IMG/VR virus record: IMGVR_UViG_2617270997_000026
Strand: one strand, 5' to 3'
DNA from: a virus
Lineage: Duplodnaviria; Heunggongvirae; Uroviricota; Caudoviricetes
DNA length: 36,370 bases
The notes beneath the pieces are model-generated. The model searched no databases. It was given only the letters and a program-made list of their open reading frames with translations, and was not told where the DNA came from. Position numbers and translations under genes: made by a program. Below are positions 5,967-36,370 of the stretch, in pieces. Position 1 is the stretch's first letter. The number at the start of each line of letters is the position of its first letter.

Positions 5967-7117
5967 TTTTTCTTCTCCTTAATCACCGTCGATGTACTGC
6001 CATCCGGGTGATAAACCGTGAGTTTCTGAGTTTTTTGTTTTTTCCCTCTTGTGACTGGCCCCCGTGCCACTTCCAGCTCTGTGGTGTAGCCGCTGTTACG
6101 GTCAAACGCATGGCGGGCAGTGGTTATGAGCCATGGCCCGGATAACTGCCCAAAACCCACCAGTTCAATTTTGTTGCCTGCTGTCAGTTGAGGTGTTCCC
6201 GTCAGCGTCAGGGAGCCGTTCTGCTGGTATTCGTTATGTCTGGCCAGTGCTGAATCCGCTTTAATCCGGGCACTGTCCGGGTCGCTGACGCGGCTGTTAA
6301 CTTTAAGTGAGTCAGCGCTGGTAACCTTACCACCTTTGAGCTTTTTGTCGCTTTCACGGGTACCACCATCAGCTTCGTAGACGATCAGTTTTTTACTGCT
6401 GCTTTTCTGGTGTTTTACCTTTGCAGATTTATAGACCCGGTTGATGGTGTCACGCAGGGAAAAGCGGGCCACATCCTGCGGTTTTAACTGCCTGACCGGC
6501 TCCTGACTGCGCAGTGTGGCCAGATGAGAAAAAATCAGCTGGTCACTGACCACTTTCACTGCATAACCATACTCGCTGGCCAGCCGGCGCAGAAAACCCA
6601 CGTCGGTTTCAGCATACTGGGTCACCCGGTCGATTCTGATGGACTCAATGCTGCCCACCAGTTTCAGTCGGTGCTTTCTGGCAATCCGCCCCGCAACAGC
6701 TGCCAGCGTGGTGTTCTCAAAACCACGACTGGTTTTAGTCCGCAGGGCACTGTTAACCGAGGTGGCCACCCCACGGATAGAAACAACGGAAGCGGGCGAA
6801 CTCACTTCGATCTCGTCTATAGAGAACGTACCGCAGGACAGCAGCTTCTCGCCCTGATAGCCCATTTTCAGCGTCAGCGTGTCACCCTTGCCCGGATACC
6901 ATTTATCCAGCCAGCGGCCATCGGTGTCGTCCAGCTCCACCTCAATGGTATCGGACTCATTTTTGATGTTATCGCTCCAGGTCACACGGGTGACATAAGG
7001 CGCGATATCAGAGGTGATGTTTTTCTGCAGATACCACAAAGTGAACACCGGTGTCAGCACATCGCTGACGCCGGTTAACGCTGATGTGACTTGCGCAGTG
7101 CTGTTTATCTCAGCCAT
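5963..7117 (-). CDS. Tail/baseplate hub protein (P2 gpD-like, Mu P/gp44 position)
   Basis: 384 aa; ATG at 7117 verified; synteny between DNA-circulation-like gene and spike. Confidence 0.7.
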   Translation of the reverse strand: MAEINSTAQVTSALTGVSDVLTPVFTLWYLQKNITSDIAPYVTRVTWSDNIKNESDTIEVELDDTDGRWLDKWYPGKGDTLTLKMGYQGEKLLSCGTFSIDEIEVSSPASVVSIRGVATSVNSALRTKTSRGFENTTLAAVAGRIARKHRLKLVGSIESIRIDRVTQYAETDVGFLRRLASEYGYAVKVVSDQLIFSHLATLRSQEPVRQLKPQDVARFSLRDTINRVYKSAKVKHQKSSSKKLIVYEADGGTRESDKKLKGGKVTSADSLKVNSRVSDPDSARIKADSALARHNEYQQNGSLTLTGTPQLTAGNKIELVGFGQLSGPWLITTARHAFDRNSGYTTELEVARGPVTRGKKQKTQKLTVYHPDGSTSTVIKEKKK

Positions 7118-27595: not shown

Positions 27596-28053
27596 CTTCT
27601 CTTGGTATTTTTGTTCATTATTCCACCTGTTCCTATGGTTACGTTACCTTTGATAACATTCCCCAGAACATCTCCATGAATAACCTGTTCCGCCCGTTCT
27701 CTGGAGGAGCCAGTAGTCAAGGCCGACAAAACTGAACCTTTGACCTGTAATGGTGCCTGCCGGTAGTGCTGCAGTAACTCCATTTCATCACGTGATAAAG
27801 TTATACCTGATGACTCCCCGGTAAGAATGAACTGTACATTGGCCCCAATTCTTGCAAAGGCTGCAAGTAACTCACCTCCGGGAACAGCAACCCCTCGTTC
27901 ATATTTCCCCCACATTTCTCTTGAAACGCCACAAAGGGCTGCTACTTCAGCCTGCTTGAGTGATAACCGCGAACGCTCAGCTTTGAACCGCGACGCGCAA
28001 AGAGAATCAAAATTCACATAAACCTCATTGACAATGAGAACAATAGTTCTCAT
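27592..28053 (-). CDS. Immunity repressor (XRE-family HTH, c/cI-like)
   Basis: HTH motif LSLKQAEVAALCGVSREMWGKYERG; divergent from ner-like early operon. ATG at 28053 has no SD (possibly leaderless); alternative GTG at 28017 with GAGG. Confidence 0.8.
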   Translation of the reverse strand: MRTIVLIVNEVYVNFDSLCASRFKAERSRLSLKQAEVAALCGVSREMWGKYERGVAVPGGELLAAFARIGANVQFILTGESSGITLSRDEMELLQHYRQAPLQVKGSVLSALTTGSSRERAEQVIHGDVLGNVIKGNVTIGTGGIMNKNTKRR

Positions 28054-28103
28054 AATCTATCACATATAAAACAAACATCATTGCATCAACAAAGGAGACA
28101 ACA
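28054..28103. promoter_or_regulatory. Immunity switch region (divergent repressor/early promoters, operators expected)
   Basis: 50-bp AT-rich spacer (ctatcacatataaaacaaacatcattgcatcaac) between divergent repressor and ner-like starts. Confidence 0.45.
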
Positions 28104-28292
28104 ATGACTTCCGAACAAGTTAAAAATCTCTTCCGTCAGCGTGGTATCACGTTTACCCGCTGGGCCGAAGAACACGGCTACAGCCGCAATGAGGTCTATC
28201 GTGTTCTCAATGGACAGACCAAAGCTCGTTACGGCAAAGCCCATGAAATTGCCGTAAAACTGGGATTAAAACCCACGTCAAATGCGGCATAA
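28104..28292 (+). CDS. Ner-like small DNA-binding regulator (first early gene)
   Basis: 62 aa; AAGGAG RBS; motif WAEEHGYSRNEVYRVLNG...GKAHEIAVKLGL consistent with Ner/Nlp-type HTH; position as Mu ner. Confidence 0.55.
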   Translation: MTSEQVKNLFRQRGITFTRWAEEHGYSRNEVYRVLNGQTKARYGKAHEIAVKLGLKPTSNAA

Positions 28293-28344
28293 ATTTTCCA
28301 CATATGCAACAGGTTATCACATATTGCAAAAATGGAAATGTGAC

Positions 28345-28653
28345 ATGAGTAAAGTAAATATTTCCAGTTCTGGGACCCGCATCCTACGTGTACTCAAAGC
28401 TCTACGCGGTCATGCTCTGAACGGTGTTTCTAACGGTGAACTGGCATCAGCCCTGGGGGAGTCCCCGGCGAATATCAATCGAGCACTTAATACCCTTATT
28501 GAAGAGGGACTGGCCATGAAATTAGAGAACGGACGTTTCGCACCGGGAATCCAGTTACTACAGATCGCCATGGCTCACAGTCACGAGATGGCGCGTGCAC
28601 AGGATCGTATTAACGAAATCAACCAACGAGTTATTTCAGGTAGTCGTTTGTAA
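28345..28653 (+). CDS. Putative winged-helix DNA-binding protein
   Basis: About 103 aa from ATG 28345 (track start 28282 overlaps ner-like gene); RILRVLKALRGHALNGVSNGELASALGESPANINRALNTLIEEGLA resembles IclR/MarR-type wHTH. Start uncertain. Confidence 0.45.
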   Translation: MSKVNISSSGTRILRVLKALRGHALNGVSNGELASALGESPANINRALNTLIEEGLAMKLENGRFAPGIQLLQIAMAHSHEMARAQDRINEINQRVISGSRL

Positions 28654-28663
28654 GGAGTAATCA

Positions 28664-29578
28664 ATGGGACGCACCAAATCACCCGTTAACACTGAACTGA
28701 ATGTTGAGGTTCCGCTGTCAGATAACATCAATGTCAATTTGAACGCTATGACACAGCATCGCATGGAAATTATGCAGCAGTTTGGTGATGGACTGCCTTA
28801 TGAACGTGATCGCATTGTTCACGAAGCACGTTTTTATATGGCGCAGAGTGCTGAATCTATGCTGGAAGCGGGTAAGCGGCTGATCATCTTAAAAGAAAAT
28901 GAGCCACACGGTGATTTTACAAACATTTTAGAAAATGAACTCGGACTTGCACCACAAGTTGCTCGCCGCATGATGCAAGCCAGTATGAAGTTTTTGGGAG
29001 AAGGTGATGAGCCAACAAAACGCTCAACGTTGAGCGTTTTGGGGAAAGCCAAACTGTACGACCTGATGGTTCTGGATAATGAAGAACTTGATGAATTGGC
29101 CGACGGCGGCACAGTTGCCGGCCTGACGCTTGACGACGTTGATCGCATGTCAGTACGTGAATTGCGTCAGGCCCTGCGCGAAGCGCGCGAAACCAACGCA
29201 GCACAACAGCGCGTACTCGCTGACAAAAATGAAAAAATAGACTCACTCTCCACCAGACTGGAGAAGAAATCCCGTATTCAGTCGCCTGAGCCTGATGAAG
29301 AGGTTAAGAAGCTGCGGGCGGAAGTGACAGCATTAGCGGTTGAGGCGGAATCTGCTATCGCCGTTCGACTGTCCAGCGCTTTTGAGACGCTGTGCGCATA
29401 TTGTGCTGAAAACATGATTGATACCCCCAGAGACTTCATGGCAGGCCTGGTCTGTCAACTGGAAAGCACAGCGCGTAGCCTGCGCTCCACATTTGACCTG
29501 CCGGATGAGCCAACAGGCAATGCCGCGCCTTCATGGCTGACTGAGCCGACGCCACAGATTAACGGGCTGGAGGCATAA
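28664..29578 (+). CDS. Conserved early protein, function unknown (possibly DUF3102-like)
   Basis: 304 aa; AAGGAG RBS; helical and acidic; immediately upstream of transposase. Confidence 0.55.
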   Translation: MGRTKSPVNTELNVEVPLSDNINVNLNAMTQHRMEIMQQFGDGLPYERDRIVHEARFYMAQSAESMLEAGKRLIILKENEPHGDFTNILENELGLAPQVARRMMQASMKFLGEGDEPTKRSTLSVLGKAKLYDLMVLDNEELDELADGGTVAGLTLDDVDRMSVRELRQALREARETNAAQQRVLADKNEKIDSLSTRLEKKSRIQSPEPDEEVKKLRAEVTALAVEAESAIAVRLSSAFETLCAYCAENMIDTPRDFMAGLVCQLESTARSLRSTFDLPDEPTGNAAPSWLTEPTPQINGLEA

Positions 29579-29581
29579 CCA

Positions 29582-31351
29582 ATGAATGCTGCCCTGACTG
29601 AACGACTGGTTTATGTCGCCCGCGCGGCACGTGACGCGGGGCATGGTAAACGCGGTGCAATATACGACGCTGCCTGTGCTGAACTTGGCATGTCCCGCGC
29701 CACTCTGCTGCGCAGGCTGAAGGAGGTCTCTGTGACTGATAAACGCAAAAAACGCGCTGATGCCGGACGCAGCGCCCTGACCCGCGACGAAGCCGCGCTG
29801 ATATCTGCCACACTGCGTGAGGCCACCCGCAAGAACGGTAAACGCCTCTATTCCATCGCAGATGCAGTGGAAACCCTGCGGGCTAACGGCTTTATCACCG
29901 CAGGCAGAACAGATGAAACCACCGGTGAGTTTTTCCCGTTGTCTGAAGATGCCATCAGCCGTGCTCTGCGTAACTATGGCCTGCACCCGGAACAACTGGA
30001 TGCTCCTGCACCGCATACCGAAGTGGCCAGTCTGCACCCCAATCATGTCTGGCAGATTGACGCCTCACTCTGCACGCTTTACTACCTGAGCAATGGACAT
30101 AAAGGGCTGCAGGTGATGGACAGCGCGAAGTTCTACAAGAACAAGCCCGCTAACCTTGCCCGTATCGCCAGTGACCGCGTGTGGAGTTACGAGATTACCG
30201 ACCATGCCAGCGGCTGGATTTACGTTGAGTATGTGACGGGCGCGGAATCAGGTGAGAACCTGTGTTCTGTGCTTATCAACGCCATGCAGGAGCGTGGCGG
30301 CGCAGACGTGCTGCACGGCGTGCCAAAAATACTCTATCTCGACCCCGGCTCGGCAAACACCGCGGGTATGACGAAAAACATGTGCCGCTCACTGGGCATC
30401 GACCTGATAGCGCACAAGCCGCATAACGCCCGCGCCACCGGACAGGTGGAAAAGGCGCGGGACATTATCGAACGCAAGCTGGAGCCGGGTCTGAAGTTCC
30501 GGCCGGTTCACAGTCTGGAAGAACTCAATGCGCTGGCCGCGAAATGGCGCAGCCACTTTAACGCCACGGCTGTTCACAGCCGCCACGGTAAAACCCGCAC
30601 GGATATCTGGCTGAAGATTACTGCTGAGCAGCTGAAAAAAGCGCCTTCCGTTGAGGTATGTCGTGAACTGGCTGTGGCGGCACCAGAACTCCGCAAAGTC
30701 ACGCCAAAACTTCGTGTCTCGTTCCGGGGCACTGAATTTGACGTATCAACGGTACCGGGCGTACTGGTCGGTGAAAAACTGATGATTACCCGTAACCCGT
30801 GGCGCAGCGATGTGGCACAGGTGGTTCTGACCGGTGAGGACGGCCACGAGACGTTCTTCCTGGTCGAAGAAGTCAGAAAGAACGAGTTTGGCTTTGCTGA
30901 AGGCGCGGCGGTATTTGGCGAAAGTTACAAAGCCCTGCCGGAAACCCCGGCGCAGATGGCGGCAAAAGAAACCGAAGCGCTGGTCACCGGTACAGACAAC
31001 GCCGCAGATGCAGCTGCCGCACGCAAGGCGAAGGCGCTGCCGTTCGGCGGGCGGCTTGACCCATATAAACATATTGATGACGCCACACTTCCGGCCTATA
31101 TGCCGAAGCGAGGTCAGGCCTCTGACGTACGCGGGCCGCGCACTGAACAACGTCCCATGACTCATGTGGAGGCCGCGAAAGCCCTGCGCGATAAGTTCAG
31201 CGCCGACGGCCTTACCTGGACGCCGGAACATTACCGCCAGTTAACGGCACAGTATCCGGACGGCGTACCGGAAGCCGCACTGGATGAAGTCATGGCCACG
31301 CTGACCACGCCGGCCCGCAGCAGCGTTATCAGCATTGTTAACGGCAACTGA
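29582..31351 (+). CDS. Transposase, DDE / retroviral-integrase-fold (Mu A functional equivalent)
   Basis: 589 aa; GGAGG RBS; catalytic triad candidates HVWQIDAS, ILYLDPGSANT, TGQVEKARD with typical rve spacing; followed by AAA+ helper gene. Confidence 0.8.
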   Translation: MNAALTERLVYVARAARDAGHGKRGAIYDAACAELGMSRATLLRRLKEVSVTDKRKKRADAGRSALTRDEAALISATLREATRKNGKRLYSIADAVETLRANGFITAGRTDETTGEFFPLSEDAISRALRNYGLHPEQLDAPAPHTEVASLHPNHVWQIDASLCTLYYLSNGHKGLQVMDSAKFYKNKPANLARIASDRVWSYEITDHASGWIYVEYVTGAESGENLCSVLINAMQERGGADVLHGVPKILYLDPGSANTAGMTKNMCRSLGIDLIAHKPHNARATGQVEKARDIIERKLEPGLKFRPVHSLEELNALAAKWRSHFNATAVHSRHGKTRTDIWLKITAEQLKKAPSVEVCRELAVAAPELRKVTPKLRVSFRGTEFDVSTVPGVLVGEKLMITRNPWRSDVAQVVLTGEDGHETFFLVEEVRKNEFGFAEGAAVFGESYKALPETPAQMAAKETEALVTGTDNAADAAAARKAKALPFGGRLDPYKHIDDATLPAYMPKRGQASDVRGPRTEQRPMTHVEAAKALRDKFSADGLTWTPEHYRQLTAQYPDGVPEAALDEVMATLTTPARSSVISIVNGN

Positions 31352-31361
31352 GGAGGGATAC

Positions 31362-32528
31362 ATGCTGGTACTGAAGCAGCAACTGAAAGAGGCCCGTATT
31401 CCACAGGCGGTGGTGGCGAGAGCTGTCGATGTTTCTGAGGCCACGCTGGCCCAGATTGTGAATCATAACGCGTGGCCCCGCACCAGCCCCGGAGAAGTGC
31501 GCCGGCGTCTTGCGTCCTGGCTGGAAAGTCAGGGGATTGATACAACGAAGAGTTTTGATGCTGTACAGGGCGCGGCCACGCCCCGTACAGCGGGTACCAC
31601 AGATAAAACGAGCCTCAGTGAGGAAGAGAATATGTTACTCAAAAAACAGGTGTTATTTCCAGCAACCAAAAAAGCGTTTGGTCTTTTCCGTGACCCGTTC
31701 GCCGACGAAGCCATGCAGGGTTCTGATGATGTGTTCACCACTCCGGACATTCGCTACGTGCGTGAGGCGCTGTACCAGACAGCCCGTCATGGTGGGTTTA
31801 TGGCCGTCATCGGTGAGTCCGGTGCGGGTAAATCCACGCTGCGCCGTGACCTGACTGAACGTATCAACCGCGAGAATGCGCCGGTGATTGTTATCGAGCC
31901 ATACATCATCGCTATGGAAGACAACGATGTGAAAGGGAAAACCCTGAAGGCAGCAGCGATTGCCGAAGCCATTATCAGTACCATCGCACCACTGGAAAGC
32001 ATCAGACGCAGTCAGGACGCCCGCTTTCGCCAGCTGCATCGCGTCCTGAAAGACAGCAGCCAGGCGGGGTTCAGCCACGTTCTGGTGATTGAGGAGGCCC
32101 ACAGTCTGCCCATTCCGACACTGAAACACCTCAAACGCTTTTTTGAGCTGGAGTCCGGTTTCAAAAAACTGCTGTCCATCGTACTGATTGGCCAGCCGGA
32201 ACTGGCGACAAAACTGTCTGAACGCAATATGGAAGTCCGTGAAGTCGTTCAGCGCTGTGAGGTGGTCGAACTTCTGCCTCTGGACAATAACCTTGAAGAG
32301 TTTCTGACGTTCAAACTGCAACGGGCCGGTAAACAACTGACGGACATTATGGACGCCAGCGCAGTGGATGCCATACGTGCCCGCCTGAGCAATCCGGGAA
32401 GTCATCGTAAAAATATGGTCAGCCTGCTGTATCCGCTGGCCGTCAGTAACCTGGTAATAGCCGCCATGAATCTGGCCGCTGAAATCGGGGTTCCACAGGT
32501 CAACGCTGACGTTGTCAAAGGGGTTTAA
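31362..32528 (+). CDS. Transposition helper ATPase (MuB-like AAA+ protein)
   Basis: 388 aa from ATG 31362 after GAGGAGGG; N-terminal HTH-like segment, Walker A GESGAGKST, Walker B VLVIEEAH; directly downstream of transposase. Confidence 0.75.
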   Translation: MLVLKQQLKEARIPQAVVARAVDVSEATLAQIVNHNAWPRTSPGEVRRRLASWLESQGIDTTKSFDAVQGAATPRTAGTTDKTSLSEEENMLLKKQVLFPATKKAFGLFRDPFADEAMQGSDDVFTTPDIRYVREALYQTARHGGFMAVIGESGAGKSTLRRDLTERINRENAPVIVIEPYIIAMEDNDVKGKTLKAAAIAEAIISTIAPLESIRRSQDARFRQLHRVLKDSSQAGFSHVLVIEEAHSLPIPTLKHLKRFFELESGFKKLLSIVLIGQPELATKLSERNMEVREVVQRCEVVELLPLDNNLEEFLTFKLQRAGKQLTDIMDASAVDAIRARLSNPGSHRKNMVSLLYPLAVSNLVIAAMNLAAEIGVPQVNADVVKGV

Positions 32529-32530
32529 TA

Positions 32531-32800
32531 ATGAAATCCACCACAGGTATCAACCAGCAAATCAGCAAAGTGCAGTCAGCCATTATGGCGCTTAAGGCGA
32601 CGAACACGGATGTACAAAGCATCACCATCAGGGGTAACAAACCTGTCATCCGCGTTTCCCGGAGTGCGCATTGCATGCGCATGCTTGAGCAGGGAAAGGC
32701 CTGTTATCTGTATACCGGACATGACCACAGGGGATATTTCCGTCAGGGCGTTTTCGAACTGCACGGCTGTCGCGTCGTGTGGCCGGAATCTTTGTGGTAA
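32531..32800 (+). CDS. Hypothetical early protein (Mu kil position)
   Basis: 89 aa immediately after B-like gene; no recognisable motif. Confidence 0.5.
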   Translation: MKSTTGINQQISKVQSAIMALKATNTDVQSITIRGNKPVIRVSRSAHCMRMLEQGKACYLYTGHDHRGYFRQGVFELHGCRVVWPESLW

Positions 32801-32827
32801 TCAGCACAACTGGAGAAATCATAAAAA

Positions 32828-33358
32828 ATGGCAAAAAGTACAAAAGGTGCAAAACGTATCAAGGCCGCAGCAGCACTCTGGGTGCCGGGGACACGTGAAG
32901 AGGTCATTGAGGGAATCAGACTACTCGGTGACGCACAACGTGAACTGGTCAGGGCTGAAACAGAAATGAATGACGCCATTGGCGATATCACCGCACGTTA
33001 TGCCCCGCTCACCGAGAGCCTGAAAAAACGCATGGCCGAACTGCAGTCCGGTATTCAGACATGGTGTGAGGCACACCGTGATGAACTGACCGGCAACGGG
33101 AAGGTGAAGTTCGCTAACCTCACCACCGGCGAGGTGCAGTGGCGAAACCGTCCGCCATCAGTCAGTATCCGTGGGGCGGATAATGTTATTGAATTACTGA
33201 GACGTCTGGGGCTTGAGCGCTTTATTCGTGTAAAAGAGGAAATAAATAAAGACGCTATCCTGAATGAAAAAGAGGCCGTGAAAAATATTCCCGGTATTTC
33301 CATTAAAAGCGACATTGAGGATTTTTCAATAATTCCTTTTGAGCAGGATGTGCAGTAA
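32828..33358 (+). CDS. gam: Host-nuclease inhibitor Gam (Mu Gam-like, Ku-like DNA end binding)
   Basis: 176 aa; MAKSTKGAKRIKAAAA... N-terminus and C-terminal SIRG..LGLERFIR.KEEINKDAIL...IEDFSIIPFEQ closely match Mu Gam as I remember it. Confidence 0.8.
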   Translation: MAKSTKGAKRIKAAAALWVPGTREEVIEGIRLLGDAQRELVRAETEMNDAIGDITARYAPLTESLKKRMAELQSGIQTWCEAHRDELTGNGKVKFANLTTGEVQWRNRPPSVSIRGADNVIELLRRLGLERFIRVKEEINKDAILNEKEAVKNIPGISIKSDIEDFSIIPFEQDVQ

Positions 33359-33455
33359 ACACACCACGTTAATTATTTAATAAAAACATTTTCTTTTTTA
33401 TTCCGGCGTCAGCGCCGCGGGCTTCTGCACGCCGGAAACAGAGGAGAATTAAATC

Positions 33456-33650
33456 ATGATATTTAAATGTATTCAGTGCGAGAGGGATATAACAGCCCTG
33501 CGTTTTCACAGCGCCATCGCCGTGATGTCCGGTAAATACCACATCCCTGCGGTACGCGTCACCCTGGTCTGCCCGTACTGCAGCCAGCATTTTTCGGCAG
33601 ACGTGCCCGTCATGGAATTCTCCCGCCCTGACAGGGAGGACTCGCAATGA
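33456..33650 (+). CDS. Small zinc-ribbon protein
   Basis: 64 aa; GAGGAGAA RBS; CxxC (CIQC) and CxxC (CPYC) pairs. Confidence 0.5.
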   Translation: MIFKCIQCERDITALRFHSAIAVMSGKYHIPAVRVTLVCPYCSQHFSADVPVMEFSRPDREDSQ

Positions 33651-33919
33651 TTACCCCACAGGAAGCACGACAGCGCACCCGAACCCTTGTTGAACACTAT
33701 GTCAACGAGTGTGAATGCCGCGACCTCACCGATGTGAAGCACGTCCTGACGGCGCTAATCAGCATGACCGCTCAGGCCATTGTGGCGACCAACGGAAAGG
33801 CGGCTGCCCTGCAGGTACTGGTGAACACACTCACCCACACGGCAGAGCATGAGGTGCCGTACCGGATGGAAACCACTGCAGAAGGCGGCCTGCACATCAC
33901 CGTCAGCCGGAAGCACTGA
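33647..33919 (+). CDS. Hypothetical early protein
   Basis: 90 aa; ATGA overlap with upstream gene. Confidence 0.45.
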   Translation: MITPQEARQRTRTLVEHYVNECECRDLTDVKHVLTALISMTAQAIVATNGKAAALQVLVNTLTHTAEHEVPYRMETTAEGGLHITVSRKH

Positions 33920-33928
33920 GGGCGCGGC

Positions 33929-34225
33929 ATGACACGGAACACCATACTCACCCGCACCGCCCTCTACCGTCTGGCCCTGCAGCGTTTCGGGCCGGACGCA
34001 CAGGCCCTGAAACTGACAGAAGAGGCCGCTGAACTGGCGGCCAGTGCTGCCCGCAATCTGAACGGACAGGGCAGCGAAAGTGACCTCGCGGCAGAGCTGG
34101 CAGACGTGGAAATCATGACAGAGCAATTGCGCCTTCAGGGGATGGACCGGCTGATTGACTTCCACAAACAGAAAAAACTGGAACGTCTGGCTGCACGACT
34201 GGGCGTGATTTACACGAACGAGTAA
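33929..34225 (+). CDS. MazG-like all-alpha nucleotide pyrophosphohydrolase family protein (putative)
   Basis: 98 aa; GAGGG RBS; motifs KLTEEAAELAASAAR and AAELADVEIMTEQL match EExxE / ExxD metal-binding helices of small MazG/HisE-type NTP-PPases. Confidence 0.5.
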   Translation: MTRNTILTRTALYRLALQRFGPDAQALKLTEEAAELAASAARNLNGQGSESDLAAELADVEIMTEQLRLQGMDRLIDFHKQKKLERLAARLGVIYTNE

Positions 34226-34239
34226 CCGGGAGGCATTCA

Positions 34240-34455
34240 ATGGCTGACATACTCAGGGAAATCACCGCATGGACACTGATTCTTACTGGCCTGGCGACAT
34301 GCCTCAGTGCGGGGGCAGCCCTGGCTGCCCTGCTGATGCACATAACAACACAGTGGTTATGGGAAAAGCTTAAAGCAGCATACAGCCTGAAAGAGCTGTC
34401 CGACGCTGTCCGGGCATGGAAACGGCAGAAAAATACCGGAGATACAGAACAATGA
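34240..34455 (+). CDS. Small membrane protein
   Basis: 71 aa; GGGAGG RBS; one TM helix ITAWTLILTGLATCLSAGAALAALLM. Confidence 0.45.
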   Translation: MADILREITAWTLILTGLATCLSAGAALAALLMHITTQWLWEKLKAAYSLKELSDAVRAWKRQKNTGDTEQ

Positions 34456-35135
34456 CAGACCAGAATAAACACATTGAGAAACTGAAAAAGTTGCTGGCGC
34501 TGGCCGCATCCGGCAACCCGCACGAGGCCGCTCTGGCACTGCGCCGAGCCCGTAAACTGATGGATGTTCACGGCATCACACATTCCGACATTGCTATGAG
34601 TGATATTGATGAAACCATCAGTCATTACTGGCCGACAGGCAGTCTCCGTCCACCGCGCTACATGCTGGGCCTGATGAACATCATCCGCGAGGCATTTGGT
34701 GTTAACTCCATCATTCACCCCGGCACGCATCCGTCTGTGGGGTTCTACGGTAACCGGGAACGAGCGGCACTGGCTGCGTACACCTGGGAAGTGCTGGTCC
34801 GCCAACTGAAAAAGGCGCGTCAGCAGTATATCAGCGCACAGAACAAAAGAATAAAAAACGCCACCCGTACCAGCCGTGGAAACCAGTTTGCTGAAGGCTG
34901 GGTACTGGCCGTTATCAGTGAAATACAGTCCTTTGCCCTGACCGATGATGAGCGTGAACTGATGCAACAGTGGCTGGAACATAAATACCCGCAAACGCAA
35001 ACCACCAGGGCGCGTAAACCGGGAAGAAGCCGCAATGGCGACGCCTCGCGCTATGCGGGGTTTCGTGAAGGGCAGAACGTCAGACTGCACCGCCCGGTCA
35101 GTGGGCAGGAACAACAGAAACTGGAGGCCAGATGA
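34452..35135 (+). CDS. Hypothetical early protein (DUF2786-like N-terminus)
   Basis: 227 aa from ATG 34452 (ATGA overlap with upstream stop); N-terminal IEKLKKLLALAASGNPHEAALALRRARKLM. Confidence 0.5.
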   Translation: MTDQNKHIEKLKKLLALAASGNPHEAALALRRARKLMDVHGITHSDIAMSDIDETISHYWPTGSLRPPRYMLGLMNIIREAFGVNSIIHPGTHPSVGFYGNRERAALAAYTWEVLVRQLKKARQQYISAQNKRIKNATRTSRGNQFAEGWVLAVISEIQSFALTDDERELMQQWLEHKYPQTQTTRARKPGRSRNGDASRYAGFREGQNVRLHRPVSGQEQQKLEAR

Positions 35136-35362
35136 TTACGCTATCAGGTAACAGCCGGAAATTAAAAGCCTGCCGAATATCTGCCAGATACCTTTTTGCC
35201 CGCGCCTTTTTTAAGAACGTCAGGCCGGGGATCACAATTGGTGTTATTGCCGGACGCGAACAGGTTGAAAAATACATGTCAGGTGCATGGTGGAATAACG
35301 ACCCTGTCATTGCTGCCCGTAATATTCATATCAGTTGGGGGGATATTCAGAATGACGGCTGA
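35132..35362 (+). CDS. Hypothetical small protein
   Basis: 76 aa; ATGA overlap with upstream gene. Confidence 0.4.
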   Translation: MITLSGNSRKLKACRISARYLFARAFFKNVRPGITIGVIAGREQVEKYMSGAWWNNDPVIAARNIHISWGDIQNDG

Positions 35363-35567
35363 ATCTGTTGTATGTGCCCTGTTCTGGTATTGTTTTGTCG
35401 GTTGGTGTACTGCTGAACTGCACCGCCGTTCAGGGTTTTATTCACGTTACAGTGGTGCCGGCTACTGGATTAGCTGGTCGGTGATGTTCCTGTGCTGGCC
35501 TGTGGCGCTTCCTTTATATGTCGATTATATCGGTGGCGCAGGTAAAAGGAGCAACGATGATGACTAA
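35352..35567 (+). CDS. Small two-TM membrane protein
   Basis: 71 aa from ATG 35352 after GGGGGG; hydrophobic segments VVCALFWYCFVGWCTA and YWISWSVMFLCWPVALPLYV. Confidence 0.4.
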   Translation: MTAESVVCALFWYCFVGWCTAELHRRSGFYSRYSGAGYWISWSVMFLCWPVALPLYVDYIGGAGKRSNDDD

Positions 35568-36009
35568 ACAACGTCTTATCCAGCTCATTCATATTGCCCG
35601 TAATGAACTGGGTATGGATGAAGACACCTACCGCCAGATGTTACAGGGGCTGACCGGTAAAGCCTCAACCAAAGGAATGGATACCACACAACTAAACTGC
35701 GTGCTGGAATCCATGAAAAGGAAAGGCTTTCGCGTTAAGCCTGCCGGAAAAGCCAGCTCCGGTTTACCGCTGGATAACCATCCGCAGTCCAGGAAAATCC
35801 GTGCGCTATGGCTTGAAATGGCTGCTGCCGGCATTGTTCGTGACCGTTCAGAAAATGCATTAGCGCGGTGGATCAAGCGGGAAACGGGCATCAGCGCCCT
35901 GCGCTGGCTCAATACTGAACAGGCAAGCAGTGTTATTGAGAAACTGAAGAAGTGGCAGCACAGAGCTGCGGGAGTAAAACATGAGCGACCTGAATCAGTT
36001 TCGAAGTAA
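35557..36009 (+). CDS. GemA-like protein (Mu gp16 family)
   Basis: 150 aa from ATG 35557 after AAGGAG; N-terminus MMTKQRLIQLIHIARNELGMDEDTYRQML typical of GemA-like proteins; directly upstream of Mor-like gene as in Mu. Confidence 0.6.
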   Translation: MMTKQRLIQLIHIARNELGMDEDTYRQMLQGLTGKASTKGMDTTQLNCVLESMKRKGFRVKPAGKASSGLPLDNHPQSRKIRALWLEMAAAGIVRDRSENALARWIKRETGISALRWLNTEQASSVIEKLKKWQHRAAGVKHERPESVSK

Positions 36010-36370
36010 AGGGCCGGAACTCCTGGTGGAACTGGCACAGCATACCTCTGAGACCGTTCGCGAGATTATTGATATTGAGCCCGCAATTGCCGACCAGATT
36101 GGTCAGGCCGTCGCGAACCGCATGATGCAGGTCTGGGGCGGGCAAAACGTTTATTTCCCGATGGGCATGGTATGGAAGGTCAGTCAGCGCGACCGGGAAA
36201 TCTTCAGGGAGTTTAACGGACGTAACCACCATGAACTGGCCCGCAAATTTGGTGTTTCGCTTCAGTGGGTCTACAGCGTGGTTAAGCGGGTAAGAAAAGA
36301 AGAACTGGATCGGATGCAGGGCAAGCTATTTGCTGATGAACCCGATGTAGATACGGAGAAAAAAGAGTAA
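35981..36370 (+). CDS. mor: Mor/C-family transcription activator (middle-operon regulator-like)
   Basis: 129 aa, complete; GGAG RBS; C-terminal HTH-like ELARKFGVSLQWVYSVVKRVRK; size and position match Mu Mor. Confidence 0.7.
   Translation: MSDLNQFRSKGPELLVELAQHTSETVREIIDIEPAIADQIGQAVANRMMQVWGGQNVYFPMGMVWKVSQRDREIFREFNGRNHHELARKFGVSLQWVYSVVKRVRKEELDRMQGKLFADEPDVDTEKKE

Follow-up and report, generated by a model that had tools for sequence, protein, structure and literature searches.

Most of the small MazG-like enzymes that have been characterized biochemically sanitize or rebalance (d)NTPs, and iMazG, DCTPP1, and DR2231 also act on dNTPs. Stand-alone MazG proteins of ~100 residues are represented by SSO3215 of Sulfolobus solfataricus (1vmg), Bacillus MazG (5ie9), iMazG from a Vibrio integron (2q5z and 2q73), and Bacillus subtilis YpjD (2gta). 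Escherichia coli MazG (PF03819; 3cra) is a 263-aa tandem-domain protein encoded beside mazEF-relA. Phage-encoded members of the superfamily with known substrates include cyanophage S-PM2 MazG, which acts on dGTP/dCTP (PMC6850273), and S-2L MazZ, a homotetramer acting on (d)GTP (PMC8342488). The Mg2+ ligands of the superfamily form an ExxE...ExxD quartet, which consists of E119/E122/E138/D141 in Mtb MazG and of E46/E49/E74/D77 in the Campylobacter jejuni dUTPase, where Lys/Arg residues act on the phosphates (PMC10014863). In MazZ, too, four acidic residues are conserved, together with an Arg (R83) (PMC8342488).

The gene analyzed here (the target gene; Table 1) lies near the right end of the window, by which we mean the whole stretch of 36,370 nucleotides that was analyzed (IMG/VR record IMGVR_UViG_2617270997_000026, Caudoviricetes). 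Escherichia phage PhiKM, a Bcepmuvirus member, shares 98% identity with the right third of the window, and the source element can be assigned to the BcepMu-like (Mu-like) transposable E. coli prophages. In size and domain number, the predicted product resembles the small stand-alone MazG proteins and differs from the tandem-domain E. coli enzyme, being a single domain of 98 aa. Its similarity to the small MazG structures is marginal, however (E values of 0.008 to 0.34, with Foldseek matches that were not significant), and its branch has features of its own: Y13, an aromatic residue and Gly at positions 20 and 21, Q25, D-V-E-I-M-x-E-Q, and K83-x-x-R86-L87. The branch is also phage borne and is covered by no Pfam model. 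Relative to HisE (PF01503 and TIGR03188; 1yvw, 6j22, and 7bgm), the protein scored below the curated cutoffs and is encoded in a phage early operon without histidine-biosynthesis context. It shares its superfamily with S-PM2 MazG and S-2L MazZ, but the three-gene Z-cluster that contains MazZ is absent around the target gene, and MazZ (7ody) ranked only 37th in the Foldseek search (E = 2.6).

We conclude that the target protein is a divergent phage-borne branch of the all-alpha NTP pyrophosphohydrolase (MazG/HisE) superfamily and that its nearest neighbors are the ~100-residue stand-alone MazG/HisE-type proteins. The superfamily label is not new, as PHROGs already carries it, and the branch is large. 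The gene is a real, conserved, and fairly ordinary phage accessory gene that very probably encodes an NTP-cleaving enzyme of the MazG/HisE type. More specifically, we put at roughly 60% the probability that it encodes a small Mg2+-dependent NTP/dNTP pyrophosphohydrolase that sanitizes or rebalances (d)NTPs during transposition. Literature searches turned up no work on this family, nor any on MazG-like genes of Mu-like phages.

Table 1. Features of the target gene and of the early region that surrounds it.
Feature	Position (nt)	Strand	Basis and remarks
Candidate early promoter, sigma-70-like TTGACA-17-CATAAT	28028-28056	+	Consensus scan, 11/12
Early-type gene array, co-directional and tightly packed, holding the target	28282-36370	+	ORFs, Pfam/PHROG, PhiKM annotation, synteny in 80 viral loci
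Transposase	29582-31351	+	Early array
B-like ATPase	31335-32528	+	Early array
89-aa ORF	Between B-like ATPase and Gam	+	Early array
Gam	32828-33358	+	Pfam Phage_Mu_Gam, E = 1e-40
64-aa zinc-ribbon ORF (CxxC...CxxC)	33456-33650	+	PHROG 3401, E = 1.6e-40; conserved in related loci
90-aa ORF	33647-33919	+	Directly upstream of target
Shine-Dalgarno-like GAGG	33918-33921	+	7 nt before target ATG; sequence read directly, putative function
Target ORF, 98 aa, ATG start	33929-34225	+	Read from sequence; small stand-alone all-alpha NTP pyrophosphohydrolase-like, PHROG 2245 family
EExxE metal-binding motif, codons E31-E32-A-A-E35, helix 1	34019-34033	+	Sequence, conservation, alignment to 5ie9
ExxD metal-binding motif, codons E56-L-A-D59, helix 2	34094-34105	+	Sequence, conservation, alignment to 5ie9
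K83-L-E-R86 basic pair near C terminus, candidate phosphate-binding residues	34175-34186	+	Conservation; role by analogy
71-aa predicted membrane protein	34240-34455	+	PHROG 3958; closest relatives only; directly downstream of target
DUF2786/DUF7168 protein	34452-35135	+	PHROG 421, function unknown; in many, not all, related Mu-like loci
GemA	35518-36009	+	Early array
Mor/C-like activator ORF	35981-36370	+	Early array

Family membership, acidic motifs, and predicted fold

Among the profile libraries, PHROGs provided the clearest assignment. PHROG 2245 ("nucleoside triphosphate pyrophosphohydrolase") matched the target protein with an E value of 2.8e-34 (119.8 bits), and residues 1 to 97 were aligned to positions 113 to 211 of the 218 positions of the profile. 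Pfam MazG (PF03819) produced no match at an E value of ≤1. The match to Pfam PRA-PH (HisE, PF01503) was below the threshold (E = 0.047; 14.5 versus 21.3 bits), as was that to the NCBIfam HisE model TIGR03188 (14.3 versus 42.7 bits), which covered the same residues. By these scores, the protein falls outside Pfam MazG and PRA-PH as they are now defined. The sequence-only reading had called the product a MazG-like enzyme on account of paired EExxE...ExxD helices. This assignment holds at the superfamily level, where a profile match to an NTP-PPase family (PHROG 2245), the motifs, and the fold agree, but it fails at the thresholds of Pfam MazG and PRA-PH.

A word-indexed homology search retrieved enterobacterial relatives only, all of which were labeled "hypothetical" except for one JGI entry, "NTP pyrophosphatase (non-canonical NTP hydrolase)." Across 1.84 billion cluster representatives, an exhaustive search with the profile recovered 10,837 proteins at an E value of ≤1e-3 and 2,143 at ≤1e-10, mostly stand-alone proteins of 85 to 110 aa; the family comprises >10,000 clusters at 50% identity. 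A second profile search yielded 6,282 relatives, and none of the best 120 of these had a precomputed Pfam domain. From the relatives, we assembled an alignment of 72 diverse members (alignment A3) with 31 to 70% identity to the target protein. Twenty of its members matched Pfam MazG at an E value of ≤0.01 (best, 2.2e-5), four matched PRA-PH, and three matched MazG-like.

Some relatives were longer. In one (P0036), the upstream zinc-ribbon ORF was joined to the MazG-like domain; two others (P0012 and P0031; 169 aa) had C-terminal extensions of ~70 residues, and N-terminal extensions of 40 to 150 residues were seen in many distant relatives. A Pfam scan of ten longer relatives with N- or C-terminal extensions detected no fused domain hinting at function.

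The acidic residues of the sequence-only reading are present as E31-E32-x-x-E35 and E56-x-x-D59, and 97 to 100% of the 72 relatives retain them. L29-T precedes E31, 20 residues separate E35 from E56, and the ExxD motif is followed by a conserved V-E-I-M-x-E-Q (V-E-I-M-T-E-Q in the target). E31, D59, Q66, and L87 were invariant (72/72); E35, E56, G21, and Q25 were each found in 71/72 members, as was an aromatic residue at position 20, and E32 was found in 70/72. K83 was present in 70/72 (Arg in the other two) and R86 in 71/72 (Lys in the remaining one); these two residues may be likened to R83 of MazZ and to the Lys/Arg of the dUTPase. By itself, the pattern EExxE-x(12-28)-ExxD is no more than moderately rare: of the 245 stop-to-stop segments of the window, 2 contain it (the target and Gam), and it arises in 0.2% of shuffles of the target protein. 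The instance in Gam (EEVIEGIRLLGDAQRELVRAETEMND) is a chance one, so the bare pattern is not diagnostic without conservation; in the target, it is more than chance because it is conserved across the 72 relatives.

These frequencies also bear on whether the protein is an enzyme at all. It might instead be a noncatalytic helical protein that binds a host or phage protein and uses the acidic motifs for structure or ligand sensing. Models for such a role would be the dimeric phage dUTPases, as derepressors or regulators, and Aqs1 of DMS3, a small helical-hairpin inhibitor. However, the five acidic positions and K83/R86 stay nearly constant in sequences that are otherwise highly divergent, which is the signature of a catalytic site, and Aqs1 is only 11% identical to the target, compared with 20 to 26% for the MazG/HisE matches. 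A noncatalytic role is therefore very unlikely.

A link to MazG/HisE structures was also found at the level of profiles. When the A3 profile was searched against all PDB sequences, five of the 16 matches at an E value of ≤10 were small MazG-superfamily structures, namely, Bacillus MazG 5ie9 (E = 0.0079), iMazG 2q73 and 2q5z, YpjD 2gta, and SSO3215 1vmg. In the alignment to 5ie9, EExxEL of the target fell on LTEEMGEL and ExxADV fell on EELGDV. The individual E values are weak because two unrelated helical proteins scored marginally above the MazG structures; it is the enrichment and the register of the motifs that count. Searches of the PDB with the single sequence or with a narrow profile (A2) returned spurious helical proteins only and were set aside. 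An hhalign comparison with a PF03819 alignment of E. coli MazG relatives covered the motif core only (E = 0.024; probability, 2%), and in this profile-profile alignment the target motifs were in register with those of E. coli MazG. Comparisons of the family with single sequences (BcepMu gp06, an Atd1 candidate, and E. coli MazG) by hhalign had no power.

With A3 as the input, AlphaFold2 produced a model with a pLDDT of 95.8 and a pTM of 0.80, whereas an earlier model from a shallow alignment was mediocre (pLDDT of 80). The predicted structure is an all-alpha fold in which two long helices (residues 9 to 44 and 50 to 91) form a central antiparallel pair bearing both acidic motifs. For both models, DCTPP1, HISN2, 5ie9, and 1vmg ranked first in Foldseek searches of the PDB, although no E value was significant (≥0.25; TM of ~0.5).

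Early-region setting and distribution of the family

The ORF was delimited exactly by the sequence-only reading, in both its coordinates and its length. Its Shine-Dalgarno-like GAGG overlaps the TGA stop codon (33917-33919) of the upstream 90-aa ORF, and the downstream ORF begins 14 nt past the target stop codon, with GGGAGG ahead of its start; such tight packing is as expected of an operon. The dN/dS ratio was 0.07 to 0.15 against homologs of 60 to 75% amino acid identity, a range indicative of purifying selection. We found the gene in 621 of 5,426 complete E. coli genomes (~11%), where all copies were chromosomal and all were labeled "hypothetical protein" in RefSeq. This uniform label, together with the lack of a covering Pfam model, might suggest a chance ORF or a decaying prophage remnant with no functional gene. 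Against this stand the low dN/dS ratio, the thousands of homologs, the kept synteny, the ribosome-binding site, and the tight operon packing, and the conservation data effectively refute it. Long antisense ORFs that overlap the target matched no family in a PHROG search and were rejected as real genes.

Every convincing gene to the right of ~28.3 kb is read rightward. The array starts with regulators, ahead of the transposase, and the target is the only nucleotide-metabolism enzyme recognized within the early region analyzed. By analogy with annotated Mu and BcepMu maps, its place would correspond to the accessory (semi-essential) early region of Mu. An early-operon setting had been proposed from the sequence, and the gene does lie inside a rightward early array with operon-like packing. 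Two details of that proposal required correction. The gene is not next to Gam, since small ORFs of 64 aa and 90 aa intervene; nor is it expected to act before replication, because it is downstream of the transposase genes and co-directional with them and would be expressed at the same time as the replication functions. The sigma-70-like site in Table 1 precedes the first rightward ORF (28282) by ~225 nt and is no more than a candidate, as the total number of such sites was no higher than in shuffles. Terminator-like sites also showed no excess over shuffles.

The placement of the gene is conserved among related viruses. In 80 IMG/VR loci with relatives, it was on the same strand as a GemA homolog and upstream of it; Mor was usually present, and the gene often came shortly after Gam. 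Placement between Gam and GemA held at 40 to 50% protein identity (loci L048 to L070), and ~10 more distant loci had no Mu markers. The zinc-ribbon, 90-aa, 71-aa transmembrane, and DUF2786 neighbors varied between related loci while the target gene stayed. Three distant members in assemblies were found in early/replication modules of unrelated temperate phages. In a Hathewaya prophage, the gene order was Gam, ERF, replisome organizer, PAPS-reductase-like gene, family member, SSB, N6/N4 methyltransferase, and RusA.

This Hathewaya histolytica locus (LR590481, 2896-7593) is a Firmicutes prophage in which the family member is 91 aa long and a Mu-type Gam gene is nearby. A second contig (L085) shows the same pairing with a PAPS-reductase-like gene; the 91-aa protein encoded there is identical, so both contigs may come from a single phage and would then not count as independent.

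Gene neighborhoods of this kind bear on another possible function, that of an enzyme dedicated to providing or removing a single (d)NTP for a pathway that modifies DNA or skews the nucleotide pool. S-2L MazZ, for instance, makes dGMP for PurZ (PMC8342488), and narrow (d)NTP preferences are found in two phage MazG-like enzymes, MazZ and cyanophage MazG. The Firmicutes member, flanked by a PAPS-reductase-like gene and SSB and close to a DNA methyltransferase gene, would fit such a function. However, the genes around the target in the window and those of the annotated early region of PhiKM included no PurZ/DatZ-like or other nucleotide-modifying enzyme, and the free turnover of the target's neighbors among related phages argues against an obligatory partner. 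We consider a dedicated function of this type quite unlikely.

An HMM search detected no family members in Mu, BcepMu, or PcCB7V. BcepMu, the type phage of its genus, nevertheless encodes another MazG-superfamily protein, gp06 ("pyrophosphatase"; YP_024679.1; PHROG 5658; 145 aa; NC_005882, 2668-3105, minus strand), which, like the target, occupies the early slot between the B-like ATPase and GemA. A profile built from 33 relatives of gp06 matched MazZ 7ody (E = 4.7e-4) and DCTPP1 (E = 0.02). Unlike the target, gp06 belongs to a different family (hhalign E = 0.15) that occurs mostly in non-Mu phages; we rejected divergent orthology on these grounds, and gp06 is apparently a non-orthologous occupant of the target's slot. 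The occurrence of two superfamily branches in Bcepmuvirus-like early regions is weak circumstantial evidence that the activity itself is selected. Taken with the fixed place of the target gene in distant Mu-like phages, the MazG-like enzyme in the BcepMu slot suggests that nucleotide-pool control matters to these phages.

Proposed reaction and biological role

For the favored role in (d)NTP sanitization or rebalancing, the reaction would be hydrolysis of the alpha-beta phosphoanhydride bond, converting NTP/dNTP to NMP/dNMP and PPi. Each chain would form a helical hairpin in which E32/E35 (with E31) and E56/D59 build the metal site, and K83/R86 probably hold the phosphates. By analogy with other ~100-residue members, a homodimer or homotetramer with active sites at the subunit interfaces is most likely. 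The gene is apparently cotranscribed with those for the transposase, the B-like ATPase, and Gam; the enzyme would thus act on the host nucleotide pool during replicative transposition by the host replisome, on which the phage is expected to depend by analogy with Mu. Removal of noncanonical or unwanted dNTPs is the most likely role. We favor a dNTP-pool role because the characterized small members mostly act on dNTPs and because the family travels with replication genes.

The sequence-only reading had instead suggested a host-takeover or antidefense factor that might blunt alarmone or nucleotide-based host responses. In a fuller version of this idea, hydrolysis of (p)ppGpp or of another nucleotide alarmone or immune signal early after induction would blunt host suicide dependent on the stringent response or on nucleotide signals. 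The only experimental precedent that we found for the alarmone idea is Atd1 of Pectobacterium phage PcCB7V, which hydrolyzes ppGpp (Km of ~50 μM) and protects against TIR-STING/retron-TIR (bioRxiv 10.1101/2022.06.09.495361). Atd1, like the target, is a small phage MazG-superfamily protein with twin acidic motifs, and these shared catalytic motifs, the small size, and the early-operon position of the target are all consistent with an alarmone substrate. The PcCB7V genome (MW367417) contains two MazG-superfamily genes. QQG33500.1 (86 aa; PHROG 6408; PRA-PH, 19.6 bits) is located two genes from a nucleotidyltransferase, and QQG33552.1 (120 aa) matches Pfam MazG above the threshold (35.4 bits). 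The Atd1 paper does not assign the name to either of these genes, and we compared both with the target. Neither showed family-level likeness: the E values were 0.14 with hhalign, 0.23 with BLASTP, and ≥0.6 with the A3 HMM, and the PHROG was different.

Other observations also count against an alarmone substrate. Purified cyanophage MazG neither binds nor hydrolyzes (p)ppGpp (PMC6850273). PADLOC-DB contained no defense model that matched the target or four of its neighbors at an E value of ≤1, and no antidefense neighborhood was seen. The substrate itself is not readable from the sequence. The target may have an antidefense or alarmone role, but this is unsupported, and we regard the suicide-blunting version as unlikely. 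In a broader form of the idea, Mu-like phages would keep an early NTP pyrophosphatase to destroy a nucleotide that triggers or executes immunity, and the two branches in the slot would reflect counterdefense selection. Candidate nucleotides would be (p)ppGpp, dITP, and the chain-terminating viperin-type ddhNTPs. The enzyme that counters Kongming dITP signaling is a dNMP phosphatase and not of the MazG type. The broader form also appears improbable. If the substrate were an alarmone or an immune nucleotide, the target would be a widespread counterdefense gene; if the protein is a housecleaning dNTPase, as the favored reading holds, it would be an ordinary accessory function.

In either case, a "hypothetical" gene of ~11% of complete E. 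coli genomes gains a defensible functional class. Many phage genes would gain an annotation from a curated model, since the family is large and Pfam does not cover it.

A minor annotation problem was also noted beside Gam. In the PhiKM GenBank record, the interval from Gam to the following plus-strand gene holds a hypothetical CDS on the minus strand (6870-7091, corresponding to ~33369-33590 in the window). The minus-strand ORF at 33369-33647, which lies opposite the zinc-ribbon ORF, had no PHROG match, and the PhiKM CDS was probably assigned to the wrong strand in GenBank.
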